Assembly: GCA_963422635.1 (NCBI GenBank)
Contig: OY730415.1
Location: forward strand, 1,210,088 to 1,274,087
DNA from: Dehalococcoidia bacterium
Lineage (GTDB): Bacteria > Chloroflexota > Dehalococcoidia > Lucifugimonadales > UBA3495
Direction of reading: 5' to 3'
DNA length: 64,000 bases
Positions 37,340 to 57,785 of the stretch are shown piece by piece. Each line of letters begins with the position of its first letter. The first letter of the stretch is position 1. A model generated the notes under the pieces. It made no database searches. It had not been told where the DNA came from and worked only from the letters and a program-made list of their open reading frames with translations. A program made the position numbers and the translations under genes.

Positions 37340-37386
37340 TACGTGGACGCGCCTTATTCACAATGGATAGCCGGCGATGAACCTGG

Positions 37387-40239: not shown

Positions 40240-41654
40240 ACTTTCAGCGCTCGCTACTAGCGCGTATCGCCTTGGCTTATGCGGCCCTCACCCTCCCCTT
40301 CCTCGCCCTTATTTTAGCGGCGCCCTTTGACCGTATGGGGAACCTACCGGGCCTGGGCGCTTCTTTTCTGGGCTGGGGCTGGAGTCTGGAAATCGGAATC
40401 GGGGTCGGAATCGGAGCTTTTGGCGTCCTTTCGGCGGCCTTGGCCTACCTGATTGCCCGTCGCGCCTACCGCGCGGTTCGCGCGGTTACGCAAGGTTCCC
40501 GCCGACTGGCCGCCGGCGACCTCGATTACCGAGTTCCGCCCGTATTCTCCCCGGAAACTCGGGAAATGACCGACGCCTTCAACCGGATGGCCGATTCTCT
40601 CAAAAGAGTCATCGAACACCGGTCCGCCGAGCGCGATACCCTGTCCGCCGTCCTGGATACCATGGCCGATGGCGTGATTGTTACCGAATTGGGCGGACGG
40701 GTAATGCTCTTGAACCCGGCCTCCCGGGAACTAATGGGCATCGGGGACGAAGCGGTGGAAGGCTCCCGGCTCATTGAACTGGTGCGCGACAACGAAATCC
40801 ACCGGCTGGCGACCCAATGCCAGTCCGAAAAAACTCGCCAACAAGGGGAAGTCGCCTTGCTCCACCCCCGGCGCTACCTCAGCGCCATCGCTACCCCCCT
40901 GGACGGCGTCGGCGCCCAGGGCGTGCTGTTGACCATCCACGACCTGACCCGCATCCGCCAAGTGGAAACCAGCCAGAAGGAGTTTGTCAGCAACGTCTCC
41001 CACGAACTGCGCAACCCCATGGCCTCCATCAAGGCGATGGTGGAAACTCTGGAGGCCGGGGCGATGCACGACCCCAAGGTCGCCGCCGACTTCCTGGGGC
41101 GGATGCGCCGGGATGTGGACCGCATTAACGGCCTGGTCAATGACTTGCTAGAACTGTCCCGGATGGAGAGCGGTCAGTTTACCATCGAGGCGGAACCCCT
41201 GTCCTTGGCCCCCTTGATGCAAGGCGTCAAGCGACAATTCCAGGAAACGGCCGCCTCTCGGGGAGTAACCATCGAATTCCAGGCGCCCGACGACTTACCG
41301 CTGGCAATGGCCGACGGCGACAAGCTGAGCCAGGTCTTGGTGAATCTGGTGGAAAACTCGCTCAAGTTCAGCCGGCCGCAAGGTCGGATTAACCTCGAAG
41401 CGCAGTCTCGGCCCGGCTACCCGGACTACTTGGAAGTGCGGCTGAGGGATACCGGAATCGGCGTGGCTCCCCAGCACCTGCCGCATATCTTTGAGCGGTT
41501 CTACAAGGTTGACCGCTCCCGGCGCGACGGCGGCACGGGATTGGGCTTGGCGATAGTCAAACAGTTAGTCGAGGCTCACGGGGGCTGGATAACGGTGGAA
41601 AGTCGGGAAGGGGAAGGTTGCGCCTTCACCTTTACCATCCCCTGCGCCGGTTGA
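40236..41654 (+). CDS. PhoR-like sensor histidine kinase (TM-HAMP-PAS-HisKA-HATPase)
   Basis: ATG overlaps the regulator stop (ATGA). H-box SHELRNPMASI; N, G1 and G2 boxes (DTGIGV, GGTGLGLAIV). Confidence 0.85.
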   Translation: MNFQRSLLARIALAYAALTLPFLALILAAPFDRMGNLPGLGASFLGWGWSLEIGIGVGIGAFGVLSAALAYLIARRAYRAVRAVTQGSRRLAAGDLDYRVPPVFSPETREMTDAFNRMADSLKRVIEHRSAERDTLSAVLDTMADGVIVTELGGRVMLLNPASRELMGIGDEAVEGSRLIELVRDNEIHRLATQCQSEKTRQQGEVALLHPRRYLSAIATPLDGVGAQGVLLTIHDLTRIRQVETSQKEFVSNVSHELRNPMASIKAMVETLEAGAMHDPKVAADFLGRMRRDVDRINGLVNDLLELSRMESGQFTIEAEPLSLAPLMQGVKRQFQETAASRGVTIEFQAPDDLPLAMADGDKLSQVLVNLVENSLKFSRPQGRINLEAQSRPGYPDYLEVRLRDTGIGVAPQHLPHIFERFYKVDRSRRDGGTGLGLAIVKQLVEAHGGWITVESREGEGCAFTFTIPCAG

Positions 41655-41707
41655 ACCGCGCCAAGTCTATCCTAGGTATTCACCGATAACGCAAAGGGAG
41701 AAATGAC

Positions 41708-42466
41708 ATGTCGTCTGTCGTACAACTCCTGAGATTCCTCCAGTTCGGAATCTTGGGCTTGGCGCTAATCCTCGCTGCCCTGGCTTGCTCCAGTGTACCC
41801 GAACTAATCCCCATCCCCGCGACGCCGGAGGTAAAGACGGCGGCGCCGGTTTCGACGCCCATCCCGACGCTAACTTTAGAACCCACCCCGGCGCCGCCCG
41901 TTTCGCCGCCGGTCCCGACAAGGGCTGATGGGCGGGAACCAGCGCCCCGGCTCACCCTTTCCCCGATCCCCGCCGACCTGCCCGATTATGACCGGAAGGA
42001 CTGGAAGCACTGGACCGACGCCGACCAGGACTGCCAGAACACCCGGGCCGAGGTCTTAATCGCCGAATCCGCTGCGCCGGTAACCTTCCGGCGTACCCGG
42101 GGCTGCACCGTTGACACCGGCCAGTGGCTTGATCCATTTACCGGAACTACCTTTACCGAAGCCGGCGACCTGGACGTTGACCACCTGGTTCCCTTGGCCA
42201 ACGCCCACCGCTCCGGCGGCTGGAAATGGAACGCCGCCCGGAAGCGGGAGTTCGCCAACAGTTTGGCCTACGACAACCATCTGATTGCCGTATCGGCCTC
42301 GGCCAACCGGGCCAAAGGCGCTAAAGGGCCGGAGGCTTGGCAGCCGCCCAACTCGGACCACCACTGCCAATATGCGCAGGACTGGATAACGGTAAAGGAC
42401 GAGTGGGGCCTTACCGCCACCACCGACGAGTGGGCCGCTCTGGAACAAATGCTGGGCCGATGCTGA
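41708..42466 (+). CDS. Secreted HNH/DUF1524-family nuclease lipoprotein
   Basis: Lipobox LAALAC, Pro-rich linker, then DVDHLVPLANAHRSGG...NRAKG...W.P and conserved Cys pairs, as in extracellular DUF1524/GmrSD-C nucleases. Confidence 0.65.
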   Translation: MSSVVQLLRFLQFGILGLALILAALACSSVPELIPIPATPEVKTAAPVSTPIPTLTLEPTPAPPVSPPVPTRADGREPAPRLTLSPIPADLPDYDRKDWKHWTDADQDCQNTRAEVLIAESAAPVTFRRTRGCTVDTGQWLDPFTGTTFTEAGDLDVDHLVPLANAHRSGGWKWNAARKREFANSLAYDNHLIAVSASANRAKGAKGPEAWQPPNSDHHCQYAQDWITVKDEWGLTATTDEWAALEQMLGRC

Positions 42467-42631
42467 TAAGAATAGCGCCCCCGCAGGGAGCGGTTCCAAG
42501 GCATTCGTATCTGGAAATATATAAATATCCCTAATTTCGTTGCCTGACCTTACTCCGGCCTACCTTCCGGTCCCGCTGGCCTTTGCCGGGATATGGGCTT
42601 GGTTGTCGCGGGCCGCCGCCCGGCGGCGACC

Positions 42632-42681
42632 TTTAACCAAGGTTTAACCCGACCTTAAAAGGGCTTTAACGGCAACCTAAT
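42632..42681 (+). promoter_or_regulatory. Pho-box-like array: five hexamers at exact 11-bp spacing
   Basis: TTTAAC at 42632, 42643 and 42665; CTTAAA at 42654; CCTAAT at 42676. TATAGG at 42702-42707 follows as a possible -10. Upstream of pstS. Confidence 0.5.
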
Positions 42682-42805
42682 TGCCGCTTGAAACGGAAAG
42701 TATAGGCTTACCGTCGTGCGCCAAGCGCGGCGCAACAGGCCTCCCTGGGGGGCGATGCGCGACCTTCGGCGTCAGAAATAGCCGAAAATACTATCAGGAG
42801 GAACC

Positions 42806-43912
<1,107 letters not shown>

Positions 43913-44139: not shown

Positions 44140-45177
44140 CTATAGCGGGCCGCCCATAAACACCGCAGCCTGTTTCCGAAAGACCTGAAGGCGTTGGCGA
44201 GAGCATTCCACCACAAAGACCCGGCCCGCATCATCCACCTCTACCGCTATCGGCCCGTGGAACTGCTTCTCGCGCTCCCGCAGACCCTGGGCCATTTCCC
44301 GGCCCCGCAGGATCGTCGGGTCCAGTTCCACCCGCTCCCGGCCCCACTTGGACAAGGTTGCCTCGCCGGTCAGCTTGGCGATAAAGTCGCCATCGGCGTT
44401 GAACACCTGGAGGCGGTCGTTCTTGAAGTCGGTAACGTAGATGATTCCCTCCTGGTCCACGGCGACTCCGGTGGGCCGGTTGAACTCCCCGTCCTCCTGA
44501 CCGGAGGCGCCAAACTTCATCAGGAACTGCCCGTCCGGGGCGAACTTCTGGATGCGGTCATTGCGCCAGTCCGCCACGTACACCGCCCCGTTGGGGTCAA
44601 TCTCGATGCCCCAAGGGTAGCTAAACTCCCCGTCCCCGCTGCCTTCGCGGCCCCATTGGGCCAGATACTTACCCTCTTTGGTGAATATCTGGATCCGGTG
44701 ATTTGCGCTGTCCACCAGGTAAAGGTTATCTGCGGCGTCGAAGGCCAGCCCGGAGGGACGGTTGAACTTGCCGTCGCCGTCGCCGAGGGTTCCCCACTTG
44801 CCGAGGCAGCGACCTTCCGGGTCAAAAATGGTAATCCGGTTGAGCCACTCGTCGGCCACGTAAGCGTTGCCGGCGCGGTCCAGGGCGACCGATGTGGGCC
44901 ACATAAAGCTGCCGTCGGGGGCGGAGGCGTCGGCTTCTTCCGGGGGAACCTTCTGGCCGAACTCGCGGACTAGCTCTTCATCCACCGTGAAGACGGTAAC
45001 CCGCTTGCAGGGGAAAAAGGCCGGAGTTTCTGAACCGCGGCTCAGCACATATAACCGGTTTTCTGGGTCCCGCGTTATCGCCACCGGGTAGAAGAACCCG
45101 GTTCCGCTCCGGTTCTCCTGCCGTCCAATGGTGTGGCTGTATTGAAAAGTTATCGGCGCAATTTCAGTAGTAACCAT
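44140..45177 (-). CDS. NHL-repeat six-bladed beta-propeller protein (cassette 1)
   Basis: Repeated ...P.G(I/V)A.D..G..YV.D..N.R(I/V)Q.F... blades x5-6. ATG at 45177 aligns with the paralog start MVT. Confidence 0.75.
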   Translation of the reverse strand: MVTTEIAPITFQYSHTIGRQENRSGTGFFYPVAITRDPENRLYVLSRGSETPAFFPCKRVTVFTVDEELVREFGQKVPPEEADASAPDGSFMWPTSVALDRAGNAYVADEWLNRITIFDPEGRCLGKWGTLGDGDGKFNRPSGLAFDAADNLYLVDSANHRIQIFTKEGKYLAQWGREGSGDGEFSYPWGIEIDPNGAVYVADWRNDRIQKFAPDGQFLMKFGASGQEDGEFNRPTGVAVDQEGIIYVTDFKNDRLQVFNADGDFIAKLTGEATLSKWGRERVELDPTILRGREMAQGLREREKQFHGPIAVEVDDAGRVFVVECSRQRLQVFRKQAAVFMGGPL

Positions 45178-45209
45178 TTTGCCTGCCCTCACAAAAGCGT
45201 CTTTTCATC

Positions 45210-45259
45210 AGGTAAGGCGGCGCTGGCGGCGGTCGACCGCCGCCAGCGCCGCCTTACCT
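45210..45259. repeat. Perfect 50-bp palindrome (25-bp arms, no loop)
   Basis: aGGTAAGGCGGCGCTGGCGGCGGTC|GACCGCCGCCAGCGCCGCCTTACCt. Verified base by base as its own reverse complement. Confidence 0.95.
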
Positions 45260-45273
45260 TTCCGATGGTCAAG

Positions 45274-46410
45274 TTACTTGATAAAGTCAAACTGCTCGTA
45301 GGCGCCGCCGAGTACGGGGTTGGCGTCGAGGCCCATCCACTGTTCCAGCAGCGCGGCGTAGGTTCCCCGGAAGTCATTGTTCCACCGTAGGTCGCCCTCA
45401 TCCAGCTTCTCCGGTTCCAGCGACGGGTACTCGCCGTACAGTCCGCCCTTTACCGAATCGCCGATGACAAAGGCCACGCCGCCCGAGCCGTGGTCGGTGC
45501 CGGAGCCATTTTCCTTTACCCGCCGCCCAAACTCGGTGAAGAGCAGCATCACGACTTCCTCGTTGGCATTATGCTCCTTCAAGTCCTGGTAGAAGTCGCC
45601 GATGGCGTTGGAGACGTCGCCCCACAGTTTGGGGAAGGTGATGTTCTGGTTGGCGTGGGTGTCGAAGGTGCCGGGGTTGACGCCGGTGTAAAGCACTCGC
45701 GTCCCGAAGTTCGCCAAGTGCACTTGGGCGATGTTTTTCAGCCATTGGGCGAAGGGGCTGCCGCCATACTCGACGCTGGAGGAATAGATTTCGGGAGCGG
45801 CGCTCAGGATGTCGGCGCCCTTCAGCGCGTCCAGACCGGTTTGGGAGAGGTAGTCGTTAACTGGCCCGGAGCCGATCATCGGGGAATACATCCGGCCAAA
45901 AATATCGAGGGCTTCCATCCGTTCTTCCTCGCCGCCGATGCCGGTCAGCACCCCGTAGCTTGCCAAATCGCCGACGGAGGCTACCGATACGCCGGGGGCG
46001 GCCAAGGCCCGGGGCAGGCCGCGGCCAAAGTTGACGGCGGTCAGGATATTCTCCTTGTTGGGGTCCAGGTCGCGGATCGCCTTGCCCAGCCAGCCGTCGG
46101 TTACCATTTTTTCCGGCTCGGCGGTGTGCCAGATGTCCAGGGAGCGGAAGTGGGAGCGAATGGGGTTGGGGTAGCCGATACCTTGCATAACGGCCACTTT
46201 GCCCTCGTCATACAGCTCCTTCAGGGGAGCCATGGCCGGGTGGAACCCGACCTTGTCGTCAACGGCCAGTACATCTTCGGGTGAAACTTGCAAGGTCGGG
46301 CGATAGTCGGGATAGTGGGGGTCGCTGTAGGGGATAAAGGTGTTTAGCGCATCATAAGCGCCGGTCATCTGAAGTATCACCAAGACCGGGTCTTTCTTGT
46401 TGGAGGTCAT
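45274..46410 (-). CDS. DUF1501-family protein (sulfatase/phosphatase-like fold), cassette 1
   Basis: RSHFRSLDIWHT, FDTHANQ and EFGRRVKENGSGTDHG motifs. No Tat/Sec signal at the N-terminus. Confidence 0.8.
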   Translation of the reverse strand: MTSNKKDPVLVILQMTGAYDALNTFIPYSDPHYPDYRPTLQVSPEDVLAVDDKVGFHPAMAPLKELYDEGKVAVMQGIGYPNPIRSHFRSLDIWHTAEPEKMVTDGWLGKAIRDLDPNKENILTAVNFGRGLPRALAAPGVSVASVGDLASYGVLTGIGGEEERMEALDIFGRMYSPMIGSGPVNDYLSQTGLDALKGADILSAAPEIYSSSVEYGGSPFAQWLKNIAQVHLANFGTRVLYTGVNPGTFDTHANQNITFPKLWGDVSNAIGDFYQDLKEHNANEEVVMLLFTEFGRRVKENGSGTDHGSGGVAFVIGDSVKGGLYGEYPSLEPEKLDEGDLRWNNDFRGTYAALLEQWMGLDANPVLGGAYEQFDFIK

Positions 46411-46517
46411 GCTCTTCTCCTTCTCGGTATGAGGTACGAGGTAGGGGTTGGTTTTGTAGCGTCGTCTTTCAGCCGTCTTTCCGTCTTTTAATTGTTGGGG
46501 CCGGTCGCTGGTTCCGG

Positions 46518-47921
46518 CTAGGCGTAGAGATATTCCTTGGTGGCTACGATCATCTGAAGTATTTGGCTAACTTGTTCGGGAAACTCCTGGGTATGGGTAG
46601 GCAACTCCCCGCTCTTTCGGGCGTGTTCCACCAGCATCCGGTAATTCTCCTCGGCCAGTTCGTAGTGGCCCAATAGCCGCAGGCAACCATCCACCAAGTT
46701 TTCCGGAGTTAGGGTGGGGCCTTCCGCCGCCAGTTTCCGAACTATGTCCTGGACGCCGGGGTAGCTGACATCCCCCACATAGTCGGCAATGAAGTTAATG
46801 CGGCGCACCAAGGTTCCGCCGTCAATCCACTCCTTGCCGGTATGCCAGCCCTCCACGGAAGGGGGATTTAGTATCTCTTGCCCCATGTGTTTCATTTCGT
46901 CGAAAATGGACTCAAAGCCGGGTTTGGGCGAGGTCCAGTCGCCAACCAGGCGCAGAGTTCCGATTACCGTCTCGATGGGGCCTTTTATGCGGGAAAAGCG
47001 CGCCTTCTTGAAGGCGTCGGAGTTAAACAGCGTCCGTAGCATAGAACGGATGTCGTAGCCGGAGCGGAAATACTCGGCTTCCAGCAGCTTGATGGTGTCC
47101 GGGTCCCGGGGCGGGGTATCCATCCAGGCCGGCACCTGAGCTTCGTCAGCGACGAAGAAACTGTAGAGGTGGCGAGAGATGAATCGGGCGGTGGCCGGCT
47201 GCTGACAGATAATGTCAATAATGTCCTCGCCGTTAAAGTTGCCGGTGCGACCCAAAAAAGTCTTCTCGCCTTCATCGTGGTCTTGGGGGTTATATACAAA
47301 CTGCGAACTGTAGCGGCCATAGGGTTGTCCGGGGATGCCGTTGGCGATCGTCCAGCCGGTAAAGGCCCGGGCGCACTCCTTCACGTCATCCTCGGTGTAG
47401 TTGAACTGCCCGTCCATGCCCACGCCCATGGAAAATAGCTCCAGCAGCTCCCGTCCGTAGTTCTCGTTGATTGCGTCTTTGTGGCTCAAGCAGTTGTCCA
47501 GAAAATAGACCATCGCCGGGTCTCGGGAAATCTCGATCAAGAGGTCTCGGAAGCTGCCCATCCCGCACCGGCGGAGCATCTCCAACTCGGCGTTAGAGGT
47601 AACATAACTTTGGGTCTTGCTGTCCGCCGTGCACAGGATGCCATGCCAGAAAAGGACCATTTTCTCTTCTAACTGGCTCCTGGAGTTTATCATGCGCCAC
47701 GCATTGTATTCGGGGACGCAGCGGATGAAGTGATTCCATTCGATGAAGCTCCGTTCCGCCAGATCCAGGTCCATCCCATTCGAATGGTCTTCAGGGTGGA
47801 GCAGTTCCTCCACGGTGGCCTCGTATCCCTGGGCGGCGCGGGCTGCCAGTTCTTCGTACTGCGCCCCAAATCCGGCGCGCCGCATCAGGTGGGCCATCAA
47901 AGCGATGTCGTTATCTGCCAT
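46518..47921 (-). CDS. DUF1800-family protein, cassette 1
   Basis: LMAHLMRRAGFGA, FWHGILCT, YFLDN...NENYGRELLELFSMG and YTEDDVKECARAFTGW motifs. Confidence 0.8.
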   Translation of the reverse strand: MADNDIALMAHLMRRAGFGAQYEELAARAAQGYEATVEELLHPEDHSNGMDLDLAERSFIEWNHFIRCVPEYNAWRMINSRSQLEEKMVLFWHGILCTADSKTQSYVTSNAELEMLRRCGMGSFRDLLIEISRDPAMVYFLDNCLSHKDAINENYGRELLELFSMGVGMDGQFNYTEDDVKECARAFTGWTIANGIPGQPYGRYSSQFVYNPQDHDEGEKTFLGRTGNFNGEDIIDIICQQPATARFISRHLYSFFVADEAQVPAWMDTPPRDPDTIKLLEAEYFRSGYDIRSMLRTLFNSDAFKKARFSRIKGPIETVIGTLRLVGDWTSPKPGFESIFDEMKHMGQEILNPPSVEGWHTGKEWIDGGTLVRRINFIADYVGDVSYPGVQDIVRKLAAEGPTLTPENLVDGCLRLLGHYELAEENYRMLVEHARKSGELPTHTQEFPEQVSQILQMIVATKEYLYA

Positions 47922-48206
47922 ACATACTCCTCCTCAACCGGGTATGAGGTAAACATAGCTGCGCTTATGATAGCATCTTTGCGATTTCCTATCAAGTTAG
48001 CCTTTCCGGTCGCCGGCTCCGTTACATCGTTGTTACACGGCCATCAAAGCTTCATTCCGGCGGAACCCCATCGGCGAATTGGGCGAAACCGCCAGCGCGT
48101 GCTAGAATGGCTTACGCTGCCGCCAATTCAAGGCTTTGCTGCGCGATGCTGCTGGGGAAGCTTCGGCAGCTGCGAGAATTATCAGGACATTATTGGAGGT
48201 TGACCA

Positions 48207-48545
48207 ATGAAGTTTATCCGACTCTACACCGGCGATGACGGGCATACCCACATTGAAGAACTGGATTGGGAATCCCGCCCCGATTTTACTAACTTGCATC
48301 AGGCCAAGGGCGTGGTTTTCCGGGCTGCCGAGGCGGGTCGGTTCAGCGACTGGCACGTCGCCCCCCGGCGGCAGTACGTTATCACCCTGGCTGGCGAAGG
48401 TGAAATCGGCTTGAAGGATGGAACCAAGTACCGCCTCGGCCCCGGCGATGTCAACCTGGCGGAAGATGTTGCCGGCGACGGCCATACCACCGCCGTGGTC
48501 GGCGACACCCCCCGCGTTACGGTTACCATACACTTGGAAGACTAA
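48207..48545 (+). CDS. Small cupin-fold protein
   Basis: 112 aa with beta-rich pattern W.H.APRRQYVITLAGEGEI...G...LGPGDV. Weak family call. Confidence 0.5.
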   Translation: MKFIRLYTGDDGHTHIEELDWESRPDFTNLHQAKGVVFRAAEAGRFSDWHVAPRRQYVITLAGEGEIGLKDGTKYRLGPGDVNLAEDVAGDGHTTAVVGDTPRVTVTIHLED

Positions 48546-48639
48546 TCCCCGGCCTTTCCCCCGGCGCCAACCGCTCCTCTTTAGGGGGAGCGGTTGGCGC
48601 CGGGACTTGCCGAATGGTTAATCCGGCCCTAATCCGGTA

Positions 48640-50658
48640 ATGGAGGTTAGCGTGATGGCAGTTTCTCGACTGGAGGTTAGGTCCATCCGGCCCTTTGCTG
48701 ATGGAGCGGTTTTTGGCGACGCCGGCGCTTACCGGCAGTTGGAAGGGCTGGCTCATTTTGCGGTTGATCCCGACCACCCGGCCAATGGCGGGATAACCGA
48801 TCTGGAGTTGGCGCCTCGGGATGCCGCTGGCCTAGTACATTGCGTCGCCGATTTTTGCATTCTGCAGCCCGAAGCGCCAGAGCGGGGGAACCACCGTATT
48901 TTGTTTGATGTGGTAAACCGGGGCAACCCTACGGCGCTGACTAACCTGAACAGCGCCGGGGAGCGGTTGGGCGCGGGCAACGGCTTCCTGATGCGGCAGG
49001 GTTACACGGTAGTTTGGTGTGGTTGGCAGTATGATGTGCCGCCGGATAGCCCCGGCCTGGTGGGACTGACCGTTCCGGAGGCCCTGACTCCGGTTGAGGC
49101 CGAGGGCGGGGGTGGGGAAGCGATTTCCGGCAAGATTTCCTTCGCTTTGCAGCCTCACCGGGTTATCTACGATCATCCGCTGGCGGACCGGGGGCACCGG
49201 CCGCATCCGGTCAGCGACGGCGGCGACCCGGAAGCGGAACTGGCGGTTCGGGAACACCAGGATGGCCCGCCCCGGGTAATTCCGAGGGAGCAGTGGGCCT
49301 TTGCTCGGCGCGACGGCGATTCGGTGGTTGCGGATGCCAGCTATGTTTATCTGGAATCGGGTTTTCAGCCGGGCCAGGTGTATGAAATAACCTACACTAC
49401 TTCCGGAGCGGCGGTGGTTGGTATGGGTCTGCTGACGCCGCGGGACTTGGTGTCCTTCCTGCGCTATGGCGCGGCGGCTGACGGCAACCCCTGCGCCGGC
49501 GACATCCAGTACGCCTATGCCTTTGGCCGTTCCCAGAGCGGCGGCTTTCTGCGCCGCTTCCTATATTGCGGCTTGACCCAGGATGAGGCTGACCGCCCGG
49601 TGTTTGAAGGGTTGATTCCCTTGGTGGCTGGCAGTGGGCGCGGGGAGATGAACCAGCGGTTTGGCCAGCCCTCGACGCCGCCCCGGGCTACCGCTGGGCG
49701 CACCTTCCCCTTCCATGACCGGCTGCAAACCGACCCGGATACCGGGCGGGTTGACGGCCTGCTAGCTCGGCTGGACGCCGCCGGCAAAACGCCCAAGGTT
49801 TTCTTGACCAACACCTCGGCGGAGTACTGGAGCGGCCACGCTTCGCTAATTCATACCACTCTGGATGGGGCGGCCGACCTGCCGCCCGCCGCCTCGGTGC
49901 GAATCTATCACTATGCTGGCGCTCAGCACGGGCCGGGCCGCTTGAGCCTGTTTGATGTGGATGTTAGGGACGGCCCCCAAGGGCAGCAGTTGGCTAATTC
50001 GGTGGATTATCGGCCGCTGCTGCGGGCGGCTCTGGTCAACCTGGACGCTTGGGTAACCAGAGGGCAGGAACCGCCGCCCAGCTGTCATCCCCGCTTGGCT
50101 GATGGCACGGCGATGCCGGCCCCGCAAACCGAGGCGGTGTTTCGGGCCATTCCGGGAGTGAACTTCCCGGAGTATCTGAAGTATGTTTATCGGCTAGACT
50201 TCGGCCCGGAGGCGTATCGGGGGCTTATCGGCCAATTGCCGCCGGCGGTGGGCGAACCTTACCCCAATTTGGTCGCGGCGGTGGATGGGGACGGCAATGA
50301 GGTGGCGGGCATCCGCTTGCCGGATGTGAGCGTGCCGGTGGCGACCAACACGGGTTGGAACCTGCGGCAGCCGGTGAGCGGCGGCCCTGGCCAGATTATG
50401 CCGCAGATTGGTTCCAGCATTCCTTTTCCGGCGACCCGCGCCCACCGGGAGGCTGCCGGCGACCCGCGCGCTTCCATCGAGGAACGTTATCGTTCCCTAG
50501 AGGACTACTTGGGGCAGGTTCAGCGGGCGGCCGAGGTTCTGGTTGACCAGGGATATTTGCTGGCCGAGGACTTGGACGTCATTGCCGAACAAGCCGCTGA
50601 ACGCTATAGCGCCTTGTCGGGGCGACCAGGGGCAGTTCCGGCGGCGACGGACGATTAG
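48640..50658 (+). CDS. Large conserved hypothetical protein, possibly of the alpha/beta-hydrolase-domain (Abhydrolase_10-like) family
   Basis: 672 aa. N-terminal ...NRGNPTALTNLNSAG...GFLMRQGYTVVWCGWQYD resembles that family from memory. Low-confidence function. Confidence 0.35.
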   Translation: MEVSVMAVSRLEVRSIRPFADGAVFGDAGAYRQLEGLAHFAVDPDHPANGGITDLELAPRDAAGLVHCVADFCILQPEAPERGNHRILFDVVNRGNPTALTNLNSAGERLGAGNGFLMRQGYTVVWCGWQYDVPPDSPGLVGLTVPEALTPVEAEGGGGEAISGKISFALQPHRVIYDHPLADRGHRPHPVSDGGDPEAELAVREHQDGPPRVIPREQWAFARRDGDSVVADASYVYLESGFQPGQVYEITYTTSGAAVVGMGLLTPRDLVSFLRYGAAADGNPCAGDIQYAYAFGRSQSGGFLRRFLYCGLTQDEADRPVFEGLIPLVAGSGRGEMNQRFGQPSTPPRATAGRTFPFHDRLQTDPDTGRVDGLLARLDAAGKTPKVFLTNTSAEYWSGHASLIHTTLDGAADLPPAASVRIYHYAGAQHGPGRLSLFDVDVRDGPQGQQLANSVDYRPLLRAALVNLDAWVTRGQEPPPSCHPRLADGTAMPAPQTEAVFRAIPGVNFPEYLKYVYRLDFGPEAYRGLIGQLPPAVGEPYPNLVAAVDGDGNEVAGIRLPDVSVPVATNTGWNLRQPVSGGPGQIMPQIGSSIPFPATRAHREAAGDPRASIEERYRSLEDYLGQVQRAAEVLVDQGYLLAEDLDVIAEQAAERYSALSGRPGAVPAATDD

Positions 50659-50704
50659 CGCGACTATAGGGGCAGGGGTTGGGGAGGTGCTTCCGGCGGC
50701 CTAT

Positions 50705-50746
50705 TTGATCGGGGCGGATAGGGACGGGCTTGCCGCCCCCGATCAA
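50705..50746 (+). terminator. Hairpin downstream of the 672-aa gene (10+3 bp stem, one bulge)
   Basis: TTGATCGGGGCGG ... CCGcCCCCGATCAA. A second short hairpin with a T5 run lies at 50766-50787. Confidence 0.4.
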
Positions 50747-50801
50747 GTAGAGCATCCGGCTTGGCGGAGCAACGGCCGCTCCTTTTTGCCTACGAACTCT
50801 C

Positions 50802-51848
50802 CTACAGGTTTCTGGCCGGGCTGGAATAGTTGTTCAGCTTGTTGTAAATCTGGATTCGGCTGCGCTGGGTGTCGAGGATTAGTAGGCGGTTATTCGGGGC
50901 GTCGAAGGCTACCGCCCGGGGCATTTGCAGGCGCCATTCCGCTTGGAAGTTCTTGACCTCCCGGCGCCGTTTCACTGCCTCCGGGTTGGTTTGCACGATC
51001 ATCTGCGCCCACTTGGTCAGTTGCCGGGCGTCGCCGATGAAGCTGGTAAAGAACTTCCCGGAGGGGTCAAAAGCCTGCACCCGGTCGTTGCCCCAGTCGC
51101 AGACGTAAACGTCGCCGTCCGGGTCAACGGCCACGTCCGAGGGGTGGTTCAGTTCGCCTCGTCCGACGCCATAGCTGCCAAACTGGGCCAGATATTCCCC
51201 TTGGGGAGTGAACTTCTGGACTCGATGATTCTTGTGGTCCACCACGTAAAGGAAGCCTTCCCGGTCGAGGGTGATGCCCCAGGGCGAATTGAGTTGGCCG
51301 TCGCCGCTGCCGGGGCCGCCGAACTTGGCGAGGAAGCGGCCGTCGTTGCTGAACTTCTGGACCCGGTGATTTCGGCTGTCCACGATATATAGGTTATCGT
51401 CCTTGTCGCAGACTATGCCGGAGGGGCCGTCGAACTCGCCGTCGCCGGTTCCCGTTGTTCCCCAGTCCCACAGCAAGTTACCCTCAGAATCGAAAACGTT
51501 GACCCGATTTAGCCACTCGTCGGTTACGTAAATGCGGTCGCGGGAATCGAGGGCGAGCCCGGCCGGCCAAGTCAACTCGCCCCGGCTGTCGCCATTGCGG
51601 CCAAACTCGGCGATAAATTCTTCGTCGCCGGCCTGAAGGCCCACGTCGAATTTGGTTACCCGGGCTCCGCGGGCGGTGCGGTTCCAGGGAACGGCGGTTA
51701 CCGCTTCGCCGCCCCGACTGAGGACGTACACTAAGTTATCTGAGCTGAAGGCCAGGGCGTTGCCGGAGGTGAAACCGGCGCCGACGCCCCCGCGACCCAT
51801 GGCGTGGCTGAAATCGTAAGCTCTGCCGGCTACTACCCGCGTTACCAT
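50802..51848 (-). CDS. NHL-repeat six-bladed beta-propeller protein (cassette 2)
   Basis: Paralog of 44140..45177, with the same blade pattern (YVTDEWLNRVNVF, YIVDSRNHRVQKF, YVVDHKNHRVQKF, YVCDWGNDRVQAF). Confidence 0.75.
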   Translation of the reverse strand: MVTRVVAGRAYDFSHAMGRGGVGAGFTSGNALAFSSDNLVYVLSRGGEAVTAVPWNRTARGARVTKFDVGLQAGDEEFIAEFGRNGDSRGELTWPAGLALDSRDRIYVTDEWLNRVNVFDSEGNLLWDWGTTGTGDGEFDGPSGIVCDKDDNLYIVDSRNHRVQKFSNDGRFLAKFGGPGSGDGQLNSPWGITLDREGFLYVVDHKNHRVQKFTPQGEYLAQFGSYGVGRGELNHPSDVAVDPDGDVYVCDWGNDRVQAFDPSGKFFTSFIGDARQLTKWAQMIVQTNPEAVKRRREVKNFQAEWRLQMPRAVAFDAPNNRLLILDTQRSRIQIYNKLNNYSSPARNL

Positions 51849-52009
51849 CTTTACTGGGCCTCCCGACGTTTTTCCAATGGGTTGGTACAGGTGGTATAGA
51901 AGGATTGAGTTGGAATGTTATGCTGGGCGCATTTGGGGAGGTTCCTAACTCAAAGGGCCAGCGTCCTTTTCAGGATTGCTGGCCCCGAAGGACGCGCCGG
52001 CGGAGCGCC

Positions 52010-53137
52010 CTAAAGGAACTTGGGCTTCTCGAACTCGCCTTTGACGATGGGTTTGGCGTCCAGGCCCAGCCAGTCTTCCAGGACGGTGGCGTAGAAGCCG
52101 CGGAAGTCCAGGTTGGGAACCAGGTCGCCCTGCTGCAAATCTTCGGCCTTCCGGGAGGGGTATTCTCCGTAGAAACCGCCTTGCACTGGGTCGCCGATGA
52201 CAAAGGCAGCGCCGGCGGCGCCGTGGTCGGTGCCGGAGCCGTTGTCCCGCACGCGGCGGCCAAACTCGGAGAAGAGCAGCATAATCACGTTGTCGGCGGC
52301 GTGGTGTTCTTTCAGGTCGGAGAAGAAGTCGCCCACCGCGGCGGAAACGTCGCTCCATAGGCTGGCGTGCATCCCCGGCTGGTTGGCATGGGAGTCGAAG
52401 CTACCGTAATCGCAGTAGAAAATTCGGGTTCCCAGGTCGGCCAGGTGGATTCGGGCGATGTCCTTGAGCTTGCGGGCGATGGGAGTGTCGGCGTACTCCA
52501 CGGTGGAGGAATACATCCCCGGCGCCACTTTCAGGATGTCGGCTCCTTTCATCGCTTCCAAGCCGGTCTCGCCCAAGTATTCCATCACCTGACCGGAGCC
52601 GATGGCGGGGGTGTACATCTGGGTGAAACGGTCCAGAATTTTGAGGCGCTGGTCTTCGTTGGAGATGCCGGTGAGCAGGCCATAGCTGTCAAGGCTGTCC
52701 ACTGCGGCCACGGGGACTCCGGCGACCGATACGGCCCGGAACATACTAGGTCCCATACTGACGGTGGTTACTACGTTTTCCTTGCGGGGGTCGATTTCCC
52801 GGGTAGCCAGGCCCAGCCAGCCTTCGGTGCCCAGCTTGTCCGGCTCGCAGGTGTGCCAGATGTCCATTGACCGGAAGTGGGAGCGCGGCGAATCGGGGTA
52901 GCCTACCCCGTGAATTACCGCGAGGTTGCCTTGGTCAAACAGTTCTTGCATTACGCGCATACTGGGATGAAAGCCCAGTTCGCTGTTAATTCGGATAATG
53001 TCTTCGTCGGCAATCCCCACCGCCGGCCGGTTGTCCCGGTAGAGGGGGTCGGTGTAGGGAATGACGGTGTTCATATAGTCGTTACCGCCGGAAAGCTGGA
53101 GTACCACCAAAACCGGGTCTTTTTTGTTGCTGGTCAT
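52010..53137 (-). CDS. DUF1501-family protein, cassette 2
   Basis: The first 11 residues, MTSNKKDPVLV, are identical to cassette 1. RSHFRSMDIWHT, FDSHANQ and EFGRRVRDNGSGTDHG motifs. Confidence 0.8.
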   Translation of the reverse strand: MTSNKKDPVLVVLQLSGGNDYMNTVIPYTDPLYRDNRPAVGIADEDIIRINSELGFHPSMRVMQELFDQGNLAVIHGVGYPDSPRSHFRSMDIWHTCEPDKLGTEGWLGLATREIDPRKENVVTTVSMGPSMFRAVSVAGVPVAAVDSLDSYGLLTGISNEDQRLKILDRFTQMYTPAIGSGQVMEYLGETGLEAMKGADILKVAPGMYSSTVEYADTPIARKLKDIARIHLADLGTRIFYCDYGSFDSHANQPGMHASLWSDVSAAVGDFFSDLKEHHAADNVIMLLFSEFGRRVRDNGSGTDHGAAGAAFVIGDPVQGGFYGEYPSRKAEDLQQGDLVPNLDFRGFYATVLEDWLGLDAKPIVKGEFEKPKFL

Positions 53138-53208
53138 TGTTTAATCTCCTTGCTAGGGCAACTCTGGGGGTATTTTATCGTATTTTTGCAGGTTTTCAAC
53201 CGGTTAGG

Positions 53209-54603
53209 TTAAGCGTACTGGTATTCGCGGAGGGATACGATTAGCTGGAGCATTTCGCCGACTCGGTGGGCAGCCTCTTGGGGGTTGGCCCAGGTCAGGA
53301 TGCCGGTTTCCTGGGCGTGGTTCACTAGTTGCTGCCGGTTGTCGGCTTGCACTTCCAGAGGGCCTAACAGGTCCAGGCAGTTGTCTACTAGTTCCTCGGG
53401 GGTCAGGTCGCCTTGGGTCTGGAGGCGGTTGATGATGGACCGGATGCCTGGTTTGGCGATGTTCCCCACCAAGTCGGCGGAGAAGTTAATCCGCTTCATC
53501 AGGGTGCCGCTGTTAATCCACTCGGGGCCGGTGTGCCAGCCCTCTACGCTGGGGGGGTTGAGCAGTTCCTGGCCCATATAGCCGGCTTCCTTGGAGAGGT
53601 TGCCGATGCCTGGCGCCGGGAACTGGTAGCCGCCGACCAGGCGCAGGCTGCCTACCAATACCTCGGCGGGACTTTTGATTTTGGCGAAGCGGGCGTTCTT
53701 GAAGAAGTCGGACATAAACAGAACCCGCAGCGTCGGCGTGATTTCGTAGTTGGAGTCGATAAAGGTTTGCGCCAGCAGGTCGATGGCCGCCGGGTCGTTG
53801 GGTGGCGTTACCGACCAGGCGGGAACCGGCGGCTCTTCGGCCACGAAGAAGTTGTAGAGGTGGCGGGCGATGAACCGGGCGGTGGCTGGTTGCTGACAAA
53901 CGATGTTGATGATGTCTTCGCCGTTGAAGTTGCCGGTATGCCCCAGGAAGGTCTTTTCTCCGTCGTCGTGGTCTTCTTCCTGGTACTCGAACTCCCAGTC
54001 GTAGCGGCCGTGGGCGTTGCGGGGAATAGAGGCGGCAATCGTCCAGCCGGTGAAGGCGCGGGAACATTCCCGCACATCGTCTTCGGTATAGTTGCCGACG
54101 CCCATACTGAAAAGTTCCAGCAGTTCCCGGCCCCAGTTCTCGTTGATGGCGTCGGCGTGGTTGTCGCAGTTATCCAGCCAGTAAATCATGGCCGGGTTTT
54201 TGGCTAACTCCACCAGCAAGTCTCGGTAGTTGCCCATGCCCCGTTCCCGGAACAGATCCACTTGGCTGACCATCTCGTGCCAGTGGTCCAGCTTGGAGCC
54301 GCCGGTGGCGAAAACCTGGTGCCAGAAAAGGACCATTTTCTCTTCCAGGGCCCGCTCGGTGTTGAGCATACTGTGGAGCCAAGCGGAGGCGCCCATGCCC
54401 GGCGAGGTGATAGGTTTCCAGAAGGATGGGTGGTAGCGGAGGAACTCGTAGCGGTCGGCCCCGGTTACGGTTTCCGGGCTCAGCAACTCCTCCACCGTGG
54501 CGGCATAGCCTTGGGCGGCGCGTTCTTCCAGTTCGTCGCGGGTAGCGCCGAAGCCGGCGCGACGCATTAGGTGAGCCATCAATGCAAGGTCTTCGTTAGC
54601 CAT
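53209..54603 (-). CDS. DUF1800-family protein, cassette 2
   Basis: ATG at 54603 preceded by AAGGAGGG. MANEDLALMAHLMRRAGFGA aligns with the cassette 1 start. Confidence 0.8.
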   Translation of the reverse strand: MANEDLALMAHLMRRAGFGATRDELEERAAQGYAATVEELLSPETVTGADRYEFLRYHPSFWKPITSPGMGASAWLHSMLNTERALEEKMVLFWHQVFATGGSKLDHWHEMVSQVDLFRERGMGNYRDLLVELAKNPAMIYWLDNCDNHADAINENWGRELLELFSMGVGNYTEDDVRECSRAFTGWTIAASIPRNAHGRYDWEFEYQEEDHDDGEKTFLGHTGNFNGEDIINIVCQQPATARFIARHLYNFFVAEEPPVPAWSVTPPNDPAAIDLLAQTFIDSNYEITPTLRVLFMSDFFKNARFAKIKSPAEVLVGSLRLVGGYQFPAPGIGNLSKEAGYMGQELLNPPSVEGWHTGPEWINSGTLMKRINFSADLVGNIAKPGIRSIINRLQTQGDLTPEELVDNCLDLLGPLEVQADNRQQLVNHAQETGILTWANPQEAAHRVGEMLQLIVSLREYQYA

Positions 54604-55553
54604 ATTCCCTCCTTGCCATAAATCAGAAAGGGTTGCTTTTGGGGTTGACTTGGAATAGGGCAAATCCAGCTTGCGAGCTTTCCGGGTAAGCAAGGAAAAC
54701 CGGAAAAGATCAGTTTAATTATCCCGGTTTGGCAGGGAAATTGTCAATACCGGGGGTGAAATAAAGATGGGCTTAGCGCGCCCCGCCGGTCTGGGGTCCC
54801 GGGGTAGAGTCGGGCTACTGCGGGGTTGCCAGCGCCGCAACGCCCGGCCCGCCGGGCGCTGGTCGGTGAGGTTCCGGCGTCGGCGGGGTGGGCAAATTCC
54901 CCGTCTTATCCGGCCCGTCAAACCGCTTTTCGCTGGCTGCTTGACTGGGCAGTCGTTCCCGGCCGGACTTGGGCCGGCCGGCTGGCTGCGCTTAGGAAGG
55001 GGCGGGCGGCGAGATGTAATCGGACACTTTTGGCGCCTGCGCTATTTGCGATTTCAAGATTTCCGGTAGGTTGCCGGACGGCTCTTGATGGCCGGGATCG
55101 GGATCGGTAGGTGGCTGCCCCTTCGAAGTGGGCGTATCCGGGTGGGCGTATCCACGCTGGATTGGTTCCAGGGAGACCGATCGCCCTGCGTCCAGGGCGC
55201 TGCGCAATGGTTAACCCGCACATTTTCAGATTAGAGAGGGGTCATCCAGGGTGTCAATGGGGCCGGCGTCAGCGAATCGGGGCAATTGCCCGGTGGGTCC
55301 TTGAGGGTGAAACCTTGGGGTAGTTAGGGACTCTACCGTTGCTCTGGGCGGCGCCGGAATCCAGGAGCTATTACCCCTTGGTGTCGTTTTGGTGTCATTC
55401 TTTGCGCCAGTCATTTCTGGGTTCTGGTCTGTGTCGGCACTGGTGGGGGGTGGGAAGGACGGGGAGATAAGGAATGTTCGGTTGCCCTCACGATTAACGA
55501 GGGTGGGGTATAATGGCGCTGGATCGCCGGACAAACGCGGAGGAGGGAACGGT

Positions 55554-56720
55554 ATGAAGTTTGGCTTGTTGTATGAGACCCAACGTCCTTATCAGGGGAC
55601 GGATATAGACTGGAACCTTTTATACAAGGAAACCCTGGACCAATGCGAACTGGCGGACCAGGTGGGGTTCGATAACCTGTGGTTCGTGGAGCATCACTTC
55701 TTGACCGGGTTCTCCGGTTCTCCCAGCCAAGACGCTATGTTTGGCGCGCTCAGCCGTATCACCAAGCAAATCCGCATCGGTTATGGCGTCTGTATTTTGC
55801 CGTACCACCACCCGGTTCGGGTGGCCGAGCGGGTGGCGCTGGTGGACCAGTTGACTGATGGGCGGGTCGAGTTCGGTACGGGCCGTTCCAACGCCTACGA
55901 ACAGATTGGGTTGGGGGTTGACCCGCGCAATACTCGTTCCCTGTGGGAGGAGTCGATTGCGATGCTGCCCCAAATCTGGCAGTCGGAGGAGTTTTCCTGG
56001 GAGGGGGAACACTGGAACGTACCCAAGCGGCGGGTGCTGCCCAAGCCTTTCCAGAAACCGCATCCCCGGATGTATTTGGCCTGCACCCAGACGGAGAGCT
56101 TTCGGCTGGCGGCCGAAAGGGGAATCGGCGTCCTGTCTTCGGCCTCCTACGCCACCGCGGTGCTGGCGGGGCATGTCCAGGTCTATCGGGAGGCGTTGGC
56201 GAATGCTAATCCGGTAGGGGCCTTCGTTAATGACTTCTGGGGGAACAATGTCCACGCCTATTGCGGGCTGGACAACGAGGAGGCGCGGGAGCTGGCGGCC
56301 CTTTCGATGAAGACTTTTTTCGGGCCGGACAAGCCCTATATCGCCGGTCGGATTAACGCTTACGAGGAATTGCTGGAGGCTTGGGGCGGGGTTCCGGACC
56401 ATTTGCAGGCCGACTTTGGGCGATGGCTTCGCCAGTCGGACGAGGCGCACCAGGCTCAGGCGGAGGAGTCGGGCATTTCTCTGGACGCCGGCCCCGGCGC
56501 GGCGCGGGCGGCGATTGCCCAGTTGGACGCCAATACTCTGGCCGACCGGGGCGTCATCATCGCTGGCGACCCGGATAGCTGCGCCGAGGCGGTGCAGTTG
56601 TACGAGGACATCGGGGTTGACCAGGTGATAATGATTATGCAGACGGAGACCATCCCTCACGAAAAGGTGATGAGCTCCATTGAGCTGTTCGGGAAAGAGG
56701 TTATCCCGCGTTTCCGCTAA
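55554..56720 (+). CDS. Luciferase-like (LLM-class) flavin-dependent oxidoreductase
   Basis: ATG at 55554 preceded by GGAGGAGGG. MKFGLLYE...GFDNLWFVEHHF...GRVEFGTGRS. Confidence 0.8.
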   Translation: MKFGLLYETQRPYQGTDIDWNLLYKETLDQCELADQVGFDNLWFVEHHFLTGFSGSPSQDAMFGALSRITKQIRIGYGVCILPYHHPVRVAERVALVDQLTDGRVEFGTGRSNAYEQIGLGVDPRNTRSLWEESIAMLPQIWQSEEFSWEGEHWNVPKRRVLPKPFQKPHPRMYLACTQTESFRLAAERGIGVLSSASYATAVLAGHVQVYREALANANPVGAFVNDFWGNNVHAYCGLDNEEARELAALSMKTFFGPDKPYIAGRINAYEELLEAWGGVPDHLQADFGRWLRQSDEAHQAQAEESGISLDAGPGAARAAIAQLDANTLADRGVIIAGDPDSCAEAVQLYEDIGVDQVIMIMQTETIPHEKVMSSIELFGKEVIPRFR

Positions 56721-56762: not shown

Positions 56763-57785
56763 TTAGCTGATGCGATAGACGCGGGCGGCGGTGTCGTGGA
56801 ACATTGCCGCCCGCTCGGTGGCCGAGTAGCCGGCGGATAGCCGCTTGAAGGCGTTGAACAGGACGGGGTGGGAATAGGAAACCTTGTCCACCGGGAAGTT
56901 GCTCTCAAACATACACCGCTCCGGCCCGAACTGTTCGATGCAGTAGTGCATCAGGGGAGCCATATCCGCGGCCAGTTCCGCCGAGCCGATGGGCTGGGCG
57001 CGGGTGTGCCAGTCGAAGCCGGTGCGGGGCATGCCGATGCCGCCCAGCTTAACTACCACGTTGGGGCAGGCGGCGACGGCGGCGATGCCGCGGCGCCATT
57101 GGGGCATTACTTCCGCGTCCCGGTTGGCGTAGGGGCCGACTCGCAGTAGGCCGCCGATGTGGTTCAGGATGATGGTCAGGTTGGGAAGGGCTTGGGCGAA
57201 GTCGGCCAGTTCGGGCAGTTGGGGGAAGTAGAGCCAGCCTTCCAGGGACAGGCCCTTTTGGGATAAGACTTGGGCTCCGGCGCGGAAGTTGGCGCTGGCT
57301 AGTTGGCCTTCCATATTGTGGGCGGCGGTGTTATCCACTTCCGGGTGGGGGTCCCAGGTTACGGAGTGGCGGATGCCCCGGAAGCGGTAGGGGCTAGCCG
57401 TTTGCAGAGCGTCCAGTATCGGCGCTACGGCGGCGCCCAGGTTGAGGTTGGCGTGGCCGATGATGGCGGCGGCGGCTTGGCCGGGGCCGTAGAGGCCGCT
57501 GGCGCTGGCGGCCGCCAACCCTTGCACAAACTCCACCTCGCCCACCGGACGCAGTTCCGCTGGCCCTTCGGCGCGGTACATGGACCGGGCCTCGATGAAC
57601 ACGGTGGAGCGGATGTTGTGGCCGGCGTTGATGTCGGCGGCTAGTTCGTGGAGCAGGTAGCGTTGGTAGGGGATGCGCTCCGGCCTGAAGTCCCAGAAGT
57701 GGTGGTGGGGGTCGCAGATAGGCAGGTCGGGTTCCAGGGCTTCTTCCTGGGTTAGTTCCAGCCAGTCGTTACCGCCGAAAGGCAT
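56763..57785 (-). CDS. Amidohydrolase_2-family protein (ACMSD-type metal-dependent hydrolase/decarboxylase)
   Basis: ICDPHHHFWD metal-binding start and NHIGG motif; 340 aa. Confidence 0.7.
   Translation of the reverse strand: MPFGGNDWLELTQEEALEPDLPICDPHHHFWDFRPERIPYQRYLLHELAADINAGHNIRSTVFIEARSMYRAEGPAELRPVGEVEFVQGLAAASASGLYGPGQAAAAIIGHANLNLGAAVAPILDALQTASPYRFRGIRHSVTWDPHPEVDNTAAHNMEGQLASANFRAGAQVLSQKGLSLEGWLYFPQLPELADFAQALPNLTIILNHIGGLLRVGPYANRDAEVMPQWRRGIAAVAACPNVVVKLGGIGMPRTGFDWHTRAQPIGSAELAADMAPLMHYCIEQFGPERCMFESNFPVDKVSYSHPVLFNAFKRLSAGYSATERAAMFHDTAARVYRIS

Follow-up and report, generated by a model that had tools for sequence, protein, structure and literature searches.

The subject of this study is a stretch of 64,000 nucleotides (nt) from contig OY730415.1 of a Dehalococcoidia bacterium, called the window below, in which the same three genes occur twice in the same order on the minus strand, from 47921 to 44140 (cassette A) and, after a gap of about 3 kb, from 54603 to 50802 (cassette B). 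They encode a DUF1800 protein, a DUF1501 protein and an NHL beta-propeller. The host genome is that of a marine SAR202-type Dehalococcoidia; SAR202 bacteria make up one of the main lineages in the dark ocean and in sponges. The question raised by this locus is what members of a usually exported pair of families do together inside the cell, joined to a propeller and duplicated as a block. DUF1501 is hugely expanded in Planctomycetes and Verrucomicrobia and, to our knowledge, together with DUF1800 or PSD1 it is among the larger bacterial families without an assigned reaction. In the literature that we searched there was no functional characterisation of DUF1800 or DUF1501 and no description of a signal-less, NHL-linked clade of these proteins. 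We found that the trio is a conserved unit in which none of the three proteins carries an export signal, and it may constitute a cytoplasmic enzyme system with DUF1501 as the metal-dependent subunit. The six genes are the following (aa, amino acids).

46518–47921, minus strand: DUF1800-A, 467 aa, PF08811 at 343 bits, without signal peptide
45274–46410, minus strand: DUF1501-A, 378 aa, PF07394 at 85.6 bits, signal-less, putative catalytic subunit
44140–45177, minus strand: NHL-A, 345 aa counted from the ATG, Pfam NHL at 130 bits, six-bladed propeller
53209–54603, minus strand: DUF1800-B, 464 aa, PF08811 at 356 bits
52010–53137, minus strand: DUF1501-B, 375 aa, PF07394 at 79.9 bits, canonical GGND motif
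50802–51848, minus strand: NHL-B, 348 aa, Pfam NHL at 135 bits

Open reading frames (ORFs), translations and Pfam matches agree with the gene content and order first described for the two cassettes. The start of NHL-A is most likely the ATG at 45177 rather than the GTG at 45192, as the ATG aligns with the paralog. The original prediction, made by eye from this sequence, put the paralogs at half to two-thirds identity; BLASTP gave 55% for DUF1800 and 56% for DUF1501, within that range, and 41% for NHL, below it. The shared N-termini, MTSNKKDPVLV in DUF1501 and MA(D/N)(N/E)D(I/L)ALMAHLMRRAGFGA in DUF1800, were reproduced exactly. A third copy of the cassette was sought in the window and none was found, so that the total is two.

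Conservation and linkage of the three genes

Linkage was examined in 80 species-representative genomes with DUF1501-A matches at 80–95% identity. These are SAR202-type Dehalococcoidia or Chloroflexota metagenome-assembled genomes (MAGs), save one MAG labelled Proteobacteria, and several bear sponge-style isolate names. DUF1800, DUF1501 and NHL follow one another on one strand in essentially every one of the 80 loci with enough flank. The position of DUF1800 directly upstream of DUF1501 on the same strand is common to both cassettes, the 80 loci and 6/6 loci of the type exported by twin-arginine translocation (Tat).

Linkage was also tested in the reverse direction: an alignment of the NHL proteins served as query against metagenomes and gave 64 loci in which 700 nt or more precede NHL. 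DUF1800 or DUF1501 adjoined NHL in all 64. DUF1501 was directly upstream in 58/64, with DUF1800 before it in most contigs that were long enough, and DUF1800 was directly upstream in 6/64 (L132, L139, L142, L152, L153 and L154). DUF1501 follows NHL in L153, the only one of these six with sufficient contig, and in the short-flank locus L141, which indicates a permuted order DUF1800-NHL-DUF1501 in the six exceptional loci. Because the linkage survives a change of gene order, it is strong evidence for a shared function. The idea that the propeller belongs with the pair, first proposed from the window only, is thus borne out by the neighbourhood survey in essentially all 80 species loci and in 64/64 metagenome loci. 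As side observations, L139 carries two divergent DUF1800-NHL pairs, and the trio of L153 comes after two Opp/Dpp-type ATP-binding cassette (ABC) ATPase genes on the same strand.

NHL adjacency holds in at least six paralog types, namely A, B and at least four more. The double arrangement recurs in at least six genomes (L004–L007, L033, L036) with the same two genes between the cassettes, one cupin-like and one encoding an Abhydrolase_10 protein. A orthologs and B orthologs are conserved independently of each other, and additional cassettes of other kinds occur in further genomes (L050, L080). A stand-alone B-type trio lies about 33 kb from an A-type trio in another genome, and the NHL protein of the stand-alone B-type trio in L090 is 74% identical to NHL-B; such B-type trios and the further types retain all three genes. 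Clustering of the ORFs of 80 genome and 80 metagenome loci revealed no conserved fourth gene or transporter and no non-trio family in more than 19/80 loci, and therefore the trio is the unit. The top non-trio neighbour, located some 3 kb downstream of NHL in 19/80 loci, was a ZnuC-like ATPase of the metal ABC-transporter type, with a His-rich tail, and PstS, amidase, luciferase-like monooxygenases and a MIP channel were also among the commonest; Opp/Dpp-type ABC genes were near the trio in a few loci only.

Absence of export signals and origin of the clade

The DUF1800 and DUF1501 proteins were originally described as free of signal peptides and transmembrane segments, and the propellers as free of signals, and this description stands. 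The three ORFs of cassette A and DUF1501-B begin at the first start codon after the upstream stop. DUF1800-B can be extended upstream by 30 residues at most, all hydrophilic, and its ATG at 54603 is preceded by an AAGGAGG ribosome-binding site. The 19-residue Kyte-Doolittle maximum does not exceed 1.3 in any of the six proteins, which is below membrane-segment level, and strand 1 of the DUF1501 catalytic domain begins 8 residues after the protein start. Signals are readily visible in this genome, since the adjacent PstS-family and nuclease-like proteins have clear, textbook lipoprotein signals. Among the metagenomic trios, 56 have an upstream frame that is bounded, and no possible extension of these contained an RR motif (0/56). 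Corrected starts add no signal, either in the window or in 56/56 of these relatives, and hidden signal peptides were ruled out by ORF boundaries, hydropathy and the relatives together. The N-terminal twin-arginine signal, which is typical of the DUF1501 family and not strictly defining, is absent from both copies.

That DUF1501 is normally exported by Tat, as stated in the original prediction, was supported by a search of 1.84 billion cluster representatives (50% identity), which gave 12,893 DUF1501 relatives. RRxF[L]-type signals are present in most of the best 150 of these: full-length relatives at up to about 43% identity almost all have a 35–55-residue Tat extension of this type, and in the closest relatives (43–63% identity) the catalytic domain comes first, with no extension before it. 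When 135 sequences were placed in a neighbour-joining tree, the signal-less DUF1501 proteins grouped as an exclusive clade, comprising A and B of the window, L050, L080, L088/P0241 and L087/P0246, and every clade type listed in the tree has a propeller gene directly adjacent. None of the six Tat-type loci has an adjacent NHL gene (0/6). Propellers within 3 kb of the pair in two Tat-type loci were considered as ancestors of NHL and rejected, being only 24–27% identical locally and not orthologs. As the Tat-type pairs lack NHL and the signal-less clade is exclusive, the loss of the signal and the recruitment of NHL coincide on one branch. Judged from this tree, the signal-less trio arose once and was then repeatedly duplicated as a whole.

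Three of five Tat-type DUF1800 proteins have neither a signal of their own nor room for one, which suggests that they are co-exported with DUF1501 as a folded complex, and hence a physical DUF1800-DUF1501 partnership in the Tat-type pairs. In earlier work DUF1800 and DUF1501 appear as neighbours in one operon, with a Tat motif and no assigned function, and in Proteobacteria such pairs have been noted beside chitin synthase genes (PMC5122149). Additionally, we noted a secreted cupredoxin-like gene with the type-1 copper motif C-x2-H-x4-M right after the Tat-type DUF1501 in two loci (L082, 8274–9107; L085, 8297–9115), and Cupin_2 genes near the Tat-type pairs in L083 and L085.

DUF1501 as the putative catalytic subunit

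Both DUF1501 proteins clearly exceed the PF07394 cut-off of 27 bits. The AlphaFold2 model of DUF1501-A (pLDDT 83.8) was matched by Foldseek to type I sulfatases, LtaS/LtaP, 3lxq and other structures of the alkaline phosphatase superfamily, at probability 1.0; by sequence, with a single query or a 150-sequence profile, no solved structural relative was found. Based on the model, DUF1501 is assigned to the alkaline-phosphatase/sulfatase-superfamily fold.

Looking for sulfatase- or phosphatase-type metal ligands, as was first suggested, brought out an invariant D, S, D-x-H and D-H set at superfamily-like positions. Invariant in 130 family sequences are D20, S86-H87, D250, H252, E293, R296, N301, D306-H307, D346 and R348, and the family-wide motifs, that is the D of GGND, S-H-F, D-x-H, E-F-G-R-R and G-T-D-H-G, have these residues in both copies. 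In the classical arrangement of the alkaline phosphatase superfamily a first metal ligand is combined with a nucleophile at the start of a helix and with a distal D-H pair. In the model D20 follows strand 1, S86 stands at the N-terminal end of the helix that comes after strand 72–79, and D306/H307 follow a later core strand. S86 is thus the probable nucleophile, and D20, D306/H307 and D250/H252 are probable metal or substrate ligands. The formylglycine motif C/S-x-P-x-R is absent, the surroundings of S86 reading P-I-R-S-H-F-R-S in both copies and family-wide, and DUF1501 is therefore not a type I sulfatase; the Pfam Sulfatase model gave no match to it even at E values up to 10. A nucleophilic Ser would be compatible with phosphoryl transfer and sulfuryl transfer alike. 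In type A the near-universal GGND is replaced by GAYD (G18A, N19Y), a change that is conserved among the A orthologs, and other types have GAND. The paralogs therefore differ beside the presumed metal site.

DUF1800 and the NHL propeller

The two DUF1800 proteins cover PF08811 from model position 1 to 418 of 419. The AlphaFold2 model of DUF1800-A (pLDDT 81.8) is mostly alpha-helical, and no relative in the PDB was found by fold match of the model or by sequence. The invariant polar residues include H11, R14, R15, W92-H93, N152-E153-N154, R157-E158, H215-D216 and K220. Both paralogs show a weak similarity (E 0.04–0.05) to PSD1, the protein paired with DUF1501 in Planctomycetes and Verrucomicrobia. 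A 617-aa DUF1800 protein (P0121) topped the profile search because of an internal duplication of about 150 residues, which is probably an assembly artefact of its 3-kb contig.

The NHL proteins belong to PF01436, with 3–5 repeats scored individually. Their best sequence matches in the PDB are TRIM-NHL domains (2e-83), with PknD and PAL (1e-12) also matched. Among 90 trio NHL proteins the conserved positions are almost all structural residues of the repeat motif, and H15 is the sole invariant His, so that there is no PAL-like three-His site. Catalytic propellers of the PAL type have a zinc site of three conserved His, with a catalytic Tyr and Arg on the propeller face. The closeness to TRIM-NHL and the almost entirely structural conservation make binding or a scaffold role likelier than catalysis. 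The ScyF model NF035926 scored 192 and 178 bits, short of its cut-off of 350, and neither a PEP-CTERM tail nor another C-terminal sorting signal was visible on the NHL proteins. An anti-phage defence reading was tried and dropped, as the sole PADLOC match was one of NHL-A to PD-T4-6, at repeat level and with 19 bits.

These data also bear on the possibility that the three proteins form a pathway and not a complex. NHL would then be an independent enzyme, a lactonase, lyase or phosphotriesterase-like protein in the manner of SMP-30, PAL or Vgb lyase, working on the same substrate before or after the step of DUF1800/DUF1501. Secondary Pfam matches of the propeller to SGL, Vgb_lyase and Phytase-like, the PAL match and the stem-loop that separates its gene from the other two (see below) are in line with such a role. 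However, SGL and Vgb_lyase score far below NHL, Vgb_lyase even under its own cut-off, the non-enzymatic TRIM-NHL domains are by far the best PDB matches, and the conserved residues are almost all structural, with no three-His site like that of PAL. We therefore regard an independent NHL enzyme as unlikely.

Promoter-like sites and stem-loops of the cassettes

Putative regulatory elements were found in front of both cassettes and between the DUF1501 and NHL genes (bp, base pairs).

47967–47995, minus strand: promoter-like site of cassette A, TTGATA, 17 nt, TGcTATCAT extended -10; 10/12 match with TG present
54718–54747, minus strand: promoter-like site of cassette B, TTGACA, 18 nt, GATAAT; 11/12 match, upstream of the ATG at 54603
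45211–45258, minus strand: stem-loop A in the DUF1501-A/NHL-A spacer, perfect stem of 22–23 bp, dG -61.4 kcal/mol, z -7.6
51943–51992, minus strand: stem-loop B in the DUF1501-B/NHL-B spacer, interrupted stem, z -2.6

The -35 and extended -10 elements of cassette A and the downstream ribosome-binding site GAGGAGGAG are invariant in six orthologous loci, among which the sequence further upstream of the core promoter cannot be aligned. A strong hairpin had been claimed for each DUF1501-NHL spacer. This applies fully to stem-loop A, the only hairpin of its kind in the window, and less well to the interrupted stem of cassette B, the core of which (GGCCAGC...GCTGGCC) resembles the stem family GGCTGGC(G/A)GC...GCTGCCAGCC of many orthologous spacers. 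Stem-loop A lies 35 nt before the start of NHL-A, and NHL-A must therefore be transcribed through the hairpin.

An uninterrupted stem of at least 9 bp was present in the DUF1501-NHL spacer of 39/75 orthologous loci, as compared to 3/75 shuffled spacers and to 5 DUF1800-DUF1501 spacers of the same 75 loci; the DUF1800-DUF1501 spacers of both cassettes are unstructured. The stem sequences vary by lineage. One family, AAAGGCTGGCGGC, loop, GCTGCCAGCCTTT, recurs in L004–L007, L012, L016, L018, L020–L025, L028, L029, L033 and L035–L037, and in other lineages this position is taken by GC-rich stems of another sequence, such as GTAGGGGCAGGTT...AACCTGCCCCTAC in L072–L077. From its position the stem-loop may attenuate transcription within the operon or affect mRNA stability, and so adjust how much NHL is made relative to DUF1800/DUF1501. 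Each cassette is proposed to be a self-contained transcription unit composed of promoter, DUF1800, DUF1501, stem-loop and NHL.

Neighbouring genes and a possible link to phosphate

Two genes on the opposite strand lie between the cassettes.

48207–48545, plus strand: cupin-like protein, 112 aa, Cupin_2 at E 2e-4 (below the Pfam cut-off), divergent from cassette A
48640–50658, plus strand: Abhydrolase_10 protein, 672 aa, PF20091 at E 3e-39

The first of these had been called a cupin, a label that the sub-threshold match supports only weakly. The cupin-like gene is 91–93% identical in 7 loci and present in 9/80, the Abhydrolase_10 gene in 8/80, and since both occur in about 10 of 80 loci or fewer they are accessory and outside the conserved unit.

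Cassette A is adjoined by a Pho-like cluster (39538–43912) that encodes an OmpR-type response regulator, a HAMP-PAS histidine kinase and two lipoproteins, one GmrSD_C/DUF1524 nuclease-like and one of the PstS family (TIGR02136, 294 bits) with no pstCAB after it. The PstS-family gene is convergent with cassette A. TTTAAC direct repeats with 11-bp spacing stand upstream of pstS (42632), and a TGTAAC-N5-TGTAAC direct repeat stands at 48021–48037 (minus-strand reading) in the divergent promoter region of the cupin-like gene and DUF1800-A. The combined pattern T[GT]TAAC-N5-T[GT]TAAC has only these two occurrences in the 64 kb.

The trio could thus be thought to belong to a Pho regulon and to release phosphate inside the cell from organophosphorus compounds. 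A Ser nucleophile in DUF1501, as in alkaline phosphatase, the convergent PstS gene with the nuclease-like lipoprotein and the PhoB/PhoR-like pair nearby, and the repeat found solely upstream of pstS and DUF1800-A all agree with this role. Yet PstS follows NHL in 16/80 loci and the PhoB/PhoR-like pair is found in 8–9/80, both confined to the closest relatives; 76/76 orthologous promoters lack the repeat that stands before DUF1800-A, and in them the core promoter alone is conserved; and cassette B and the other paralog types stand in unrelated contexts. The Pho-box idea was rejected because the orthologs lack the repeat, the PstS/PhoBR-like cluster beside cassette A is local synteny, and we give a role in the Pho regulon only a small chance.

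The cassettes are flanked further out by paralogs of a luciferase-like monooxygenase (37480–38763 and 55389–56720) and by an Amidohydro_2 protein (56763–57785), an SDR (59137–59907) and a glyoxalase-fold protein (57972–58415). Such paralog-rich catabolic gene content has been reported for SAR202. The region 33000–38000 has a G+C of 0.52 as compared to about 0.61, and within it the N-terminal half of a UvrD-type helicase (34280–35794) and a separate ORF with UvrD_C and a PD-(D/E)XK nuclease (35927–37339) look like an AddA-like gene in two ORFs, which may be frameshifted, a pseudogene or truly organised as two genes.

Proposed mechanism and remaining alternatives

We propose that the trio is a cytoplasmic three-protein metallo-esterase/transferase system that was diversified for different imported substrates by duplication of the cassette, a proposal to which we give roughly even chances. 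The three soluble proteins would work together in the cytoplasm. DUF1501 would be the metal-dependent catalytic subunit, cleaving or transferring an anionic ester group of the phospho or sulfo type; DUF1800 would serve as its obligate partner, of helical structure, just as in the exported systems of two genes; and NHL would be a third, lineage-specific partner, most likely a scaffold that binds substrate or protein and not a catalyst. A Tat-exported DUF1800/DUF1501 pair would have lost its signal while recruiting the NHL gene, once. Duplication of the whole trio would then have given cassettes A and B and no fewer than four further types that differ around the active site, as in the change from GGND to GAYD in A. 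The paralogous cassettes presumably act on different imported substrates, which would fit the paralog-rich catabolic genomes of SAR202. From gene linkage and conserved residues we infer a complex, its chemistry and the kind of substrate, and it is in this putative sense that we keep the term enzyme system for the trio.

Several observations weigh against this proposal. The Foldseek TM-scores of DUF1501 are 0.35–0.45 at about 10% identity, and therefore assign a superfamily and not a reaction. Given its many invariant polar residues, DUF1800 may be a catalyst in its own right. NHL is possibly a looser partner, since it diverges faster than the other two (41% identity between the cassettes vs 55–56%) and since a stem-loop separates its gene from them in about half of the loci. 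Cupredoxin genes beside some Tat-type pairs and cytochrome c links in relatives from Planctomycetes–Verrucomicrobia–Chlamydiae (PVC) bacteria (PMC3542564) are hints of redox chemistry beyond a simple esterase model.

The last point can be extended to an alternative in which the trio is a redox or electron-transfer module with cytoplasmic electron carriers, as proposed for the PVC DUF1501/PSCyt/PSD1 proteins. DUF1501 is tied there to partners with cytochrome c domains and sometimes to a WD40 propeller (PMC3542564), a cupredoxin gene with C-x2-H-x4-M follows two Tat-type pairs, and both DUF1800 paralogs resemble PSD1 weakly. Against this, no cytochrome, cupredoxin or other redox domain occurs in or beside the signal-less trios, and the fold and invariant residues of DUF1501 match hydrolytic and transferase enzymes of the alkaline phosphatase superfamily. 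A redox module is in our view very unlikely.

Slimmer still are the chances that the proteins are exported after all, by a non-classical route or piggy-back on an unlinked signal-bearing protein. Tat hitch-hiking is probable for DUF1800 in some Tat-type pairs, but in more than 130 trios inspected all three proteins are free of signals, the loss of the signal is clade-wide and old, and there is no conserved fourth gene. An artefact of assembly or annotation as the source of the two cassettes has a negligible chance and is already refuted, as paralogs of 41–56% identity imply an old duplication and no assembly error, the same double arrangement recurs in at least six other genomes, and A and B orthologs are kept separately.

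Significance

Returning to the metallo-esterase/transferase proposal, its most far-reaching form would be a previously unrecognised class of cytoplasmic enzymes with three subunits, a DUF1501 with a Ser nucleophile, a helical DUF1800 and an NHL that selects the substrate, diversified by duplication of whole cassettes into a family of intracellular esterases or transferases for distinct imported anionic esters. We put this forward tentatively, as less probable than not by a clear distance. If it holds, SAR202 and related Chloroflexota would degrade imported anionic esters from refractory marine or host-derived organic matter, and the trio would offer the first tractable entry to the chemistry of DUF1501, DUF1800 and PSD1, being soluble and export-free.

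The clade is abundant in SAR202 and distinct in being cytoplasmic, NHL-partnered and multiplying as a three-gene block, and the comparative signal points to the propeller as part of the function. The trio should be expressible in E. coli without Tat export, and its paralogs are natural matched sets for studies of specificity. If the chemistry were solved, thousands of genes could be annotated and intracellular substrates of SAR202 could be revealed.

Comparison with known systems

The nearest known systems are the Tat-exported pairs of Chloroflexota, Bipolaricaulota and others, which share with the trio the Pfam families, the gene order and the invariant residues at 34–43% identity. They differ in the 35–55-residue Tat signals of DUF1501 and in having no adjacent NHL gene (0/6), whereas the window clade is signal-less and NHL-partnered, and its DUF1800 has clade-specific insertions at residues 195–203 and 262–272 as compared to the Tat-type DUF1800.

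In PVC bacteria, DUF1501 clusters with PSCyt/PSD1 proteins and sometimes with a WD40 propeller (PMC3542564, PMC5615132), and cytochrome c domains are fused to its relatives there or linked with them (PMC3542564). These modules resemble the trio in their large helical partner, their massive paralog expansion and the beta-propeller of some four-gene clusters. Their partners carry cytochrome c and carbohydrate-binding domains as well as signal peptides, and their propeller is of the WD40 type, whereas the window trio is cytoplasmic, has no redox domain and uses an NHL propeller.

Type I sulfatases and the LtaS/phosphoethanolamine-transferase branch are the best fold matches of DUF1501 and share with it the Asp after strand 1, the nucleophile at a helix N-terminus and the C-terminal D-H pair. 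DUF1501 differs from them in its low similarity (about 10% identity, TM-scores of 0.35–0.45), in the lack of C/S-x-P-x-R and in that it is taken to need a DUF1800 partner. The propellers of TRIM-NHL proteins, the PknD sensor and ScyF-type proteins have the canonical six-bladed NHL repeats in common with the window protein. Unlike TRIM-NHL and PknD, the latter carries no RING/B-box or kinase domain; it is a cytoplasmic propeller that stands alone, its N-terminus bearing an additional S-H-x2-G-R motif and its last blade containing a helical insertion.

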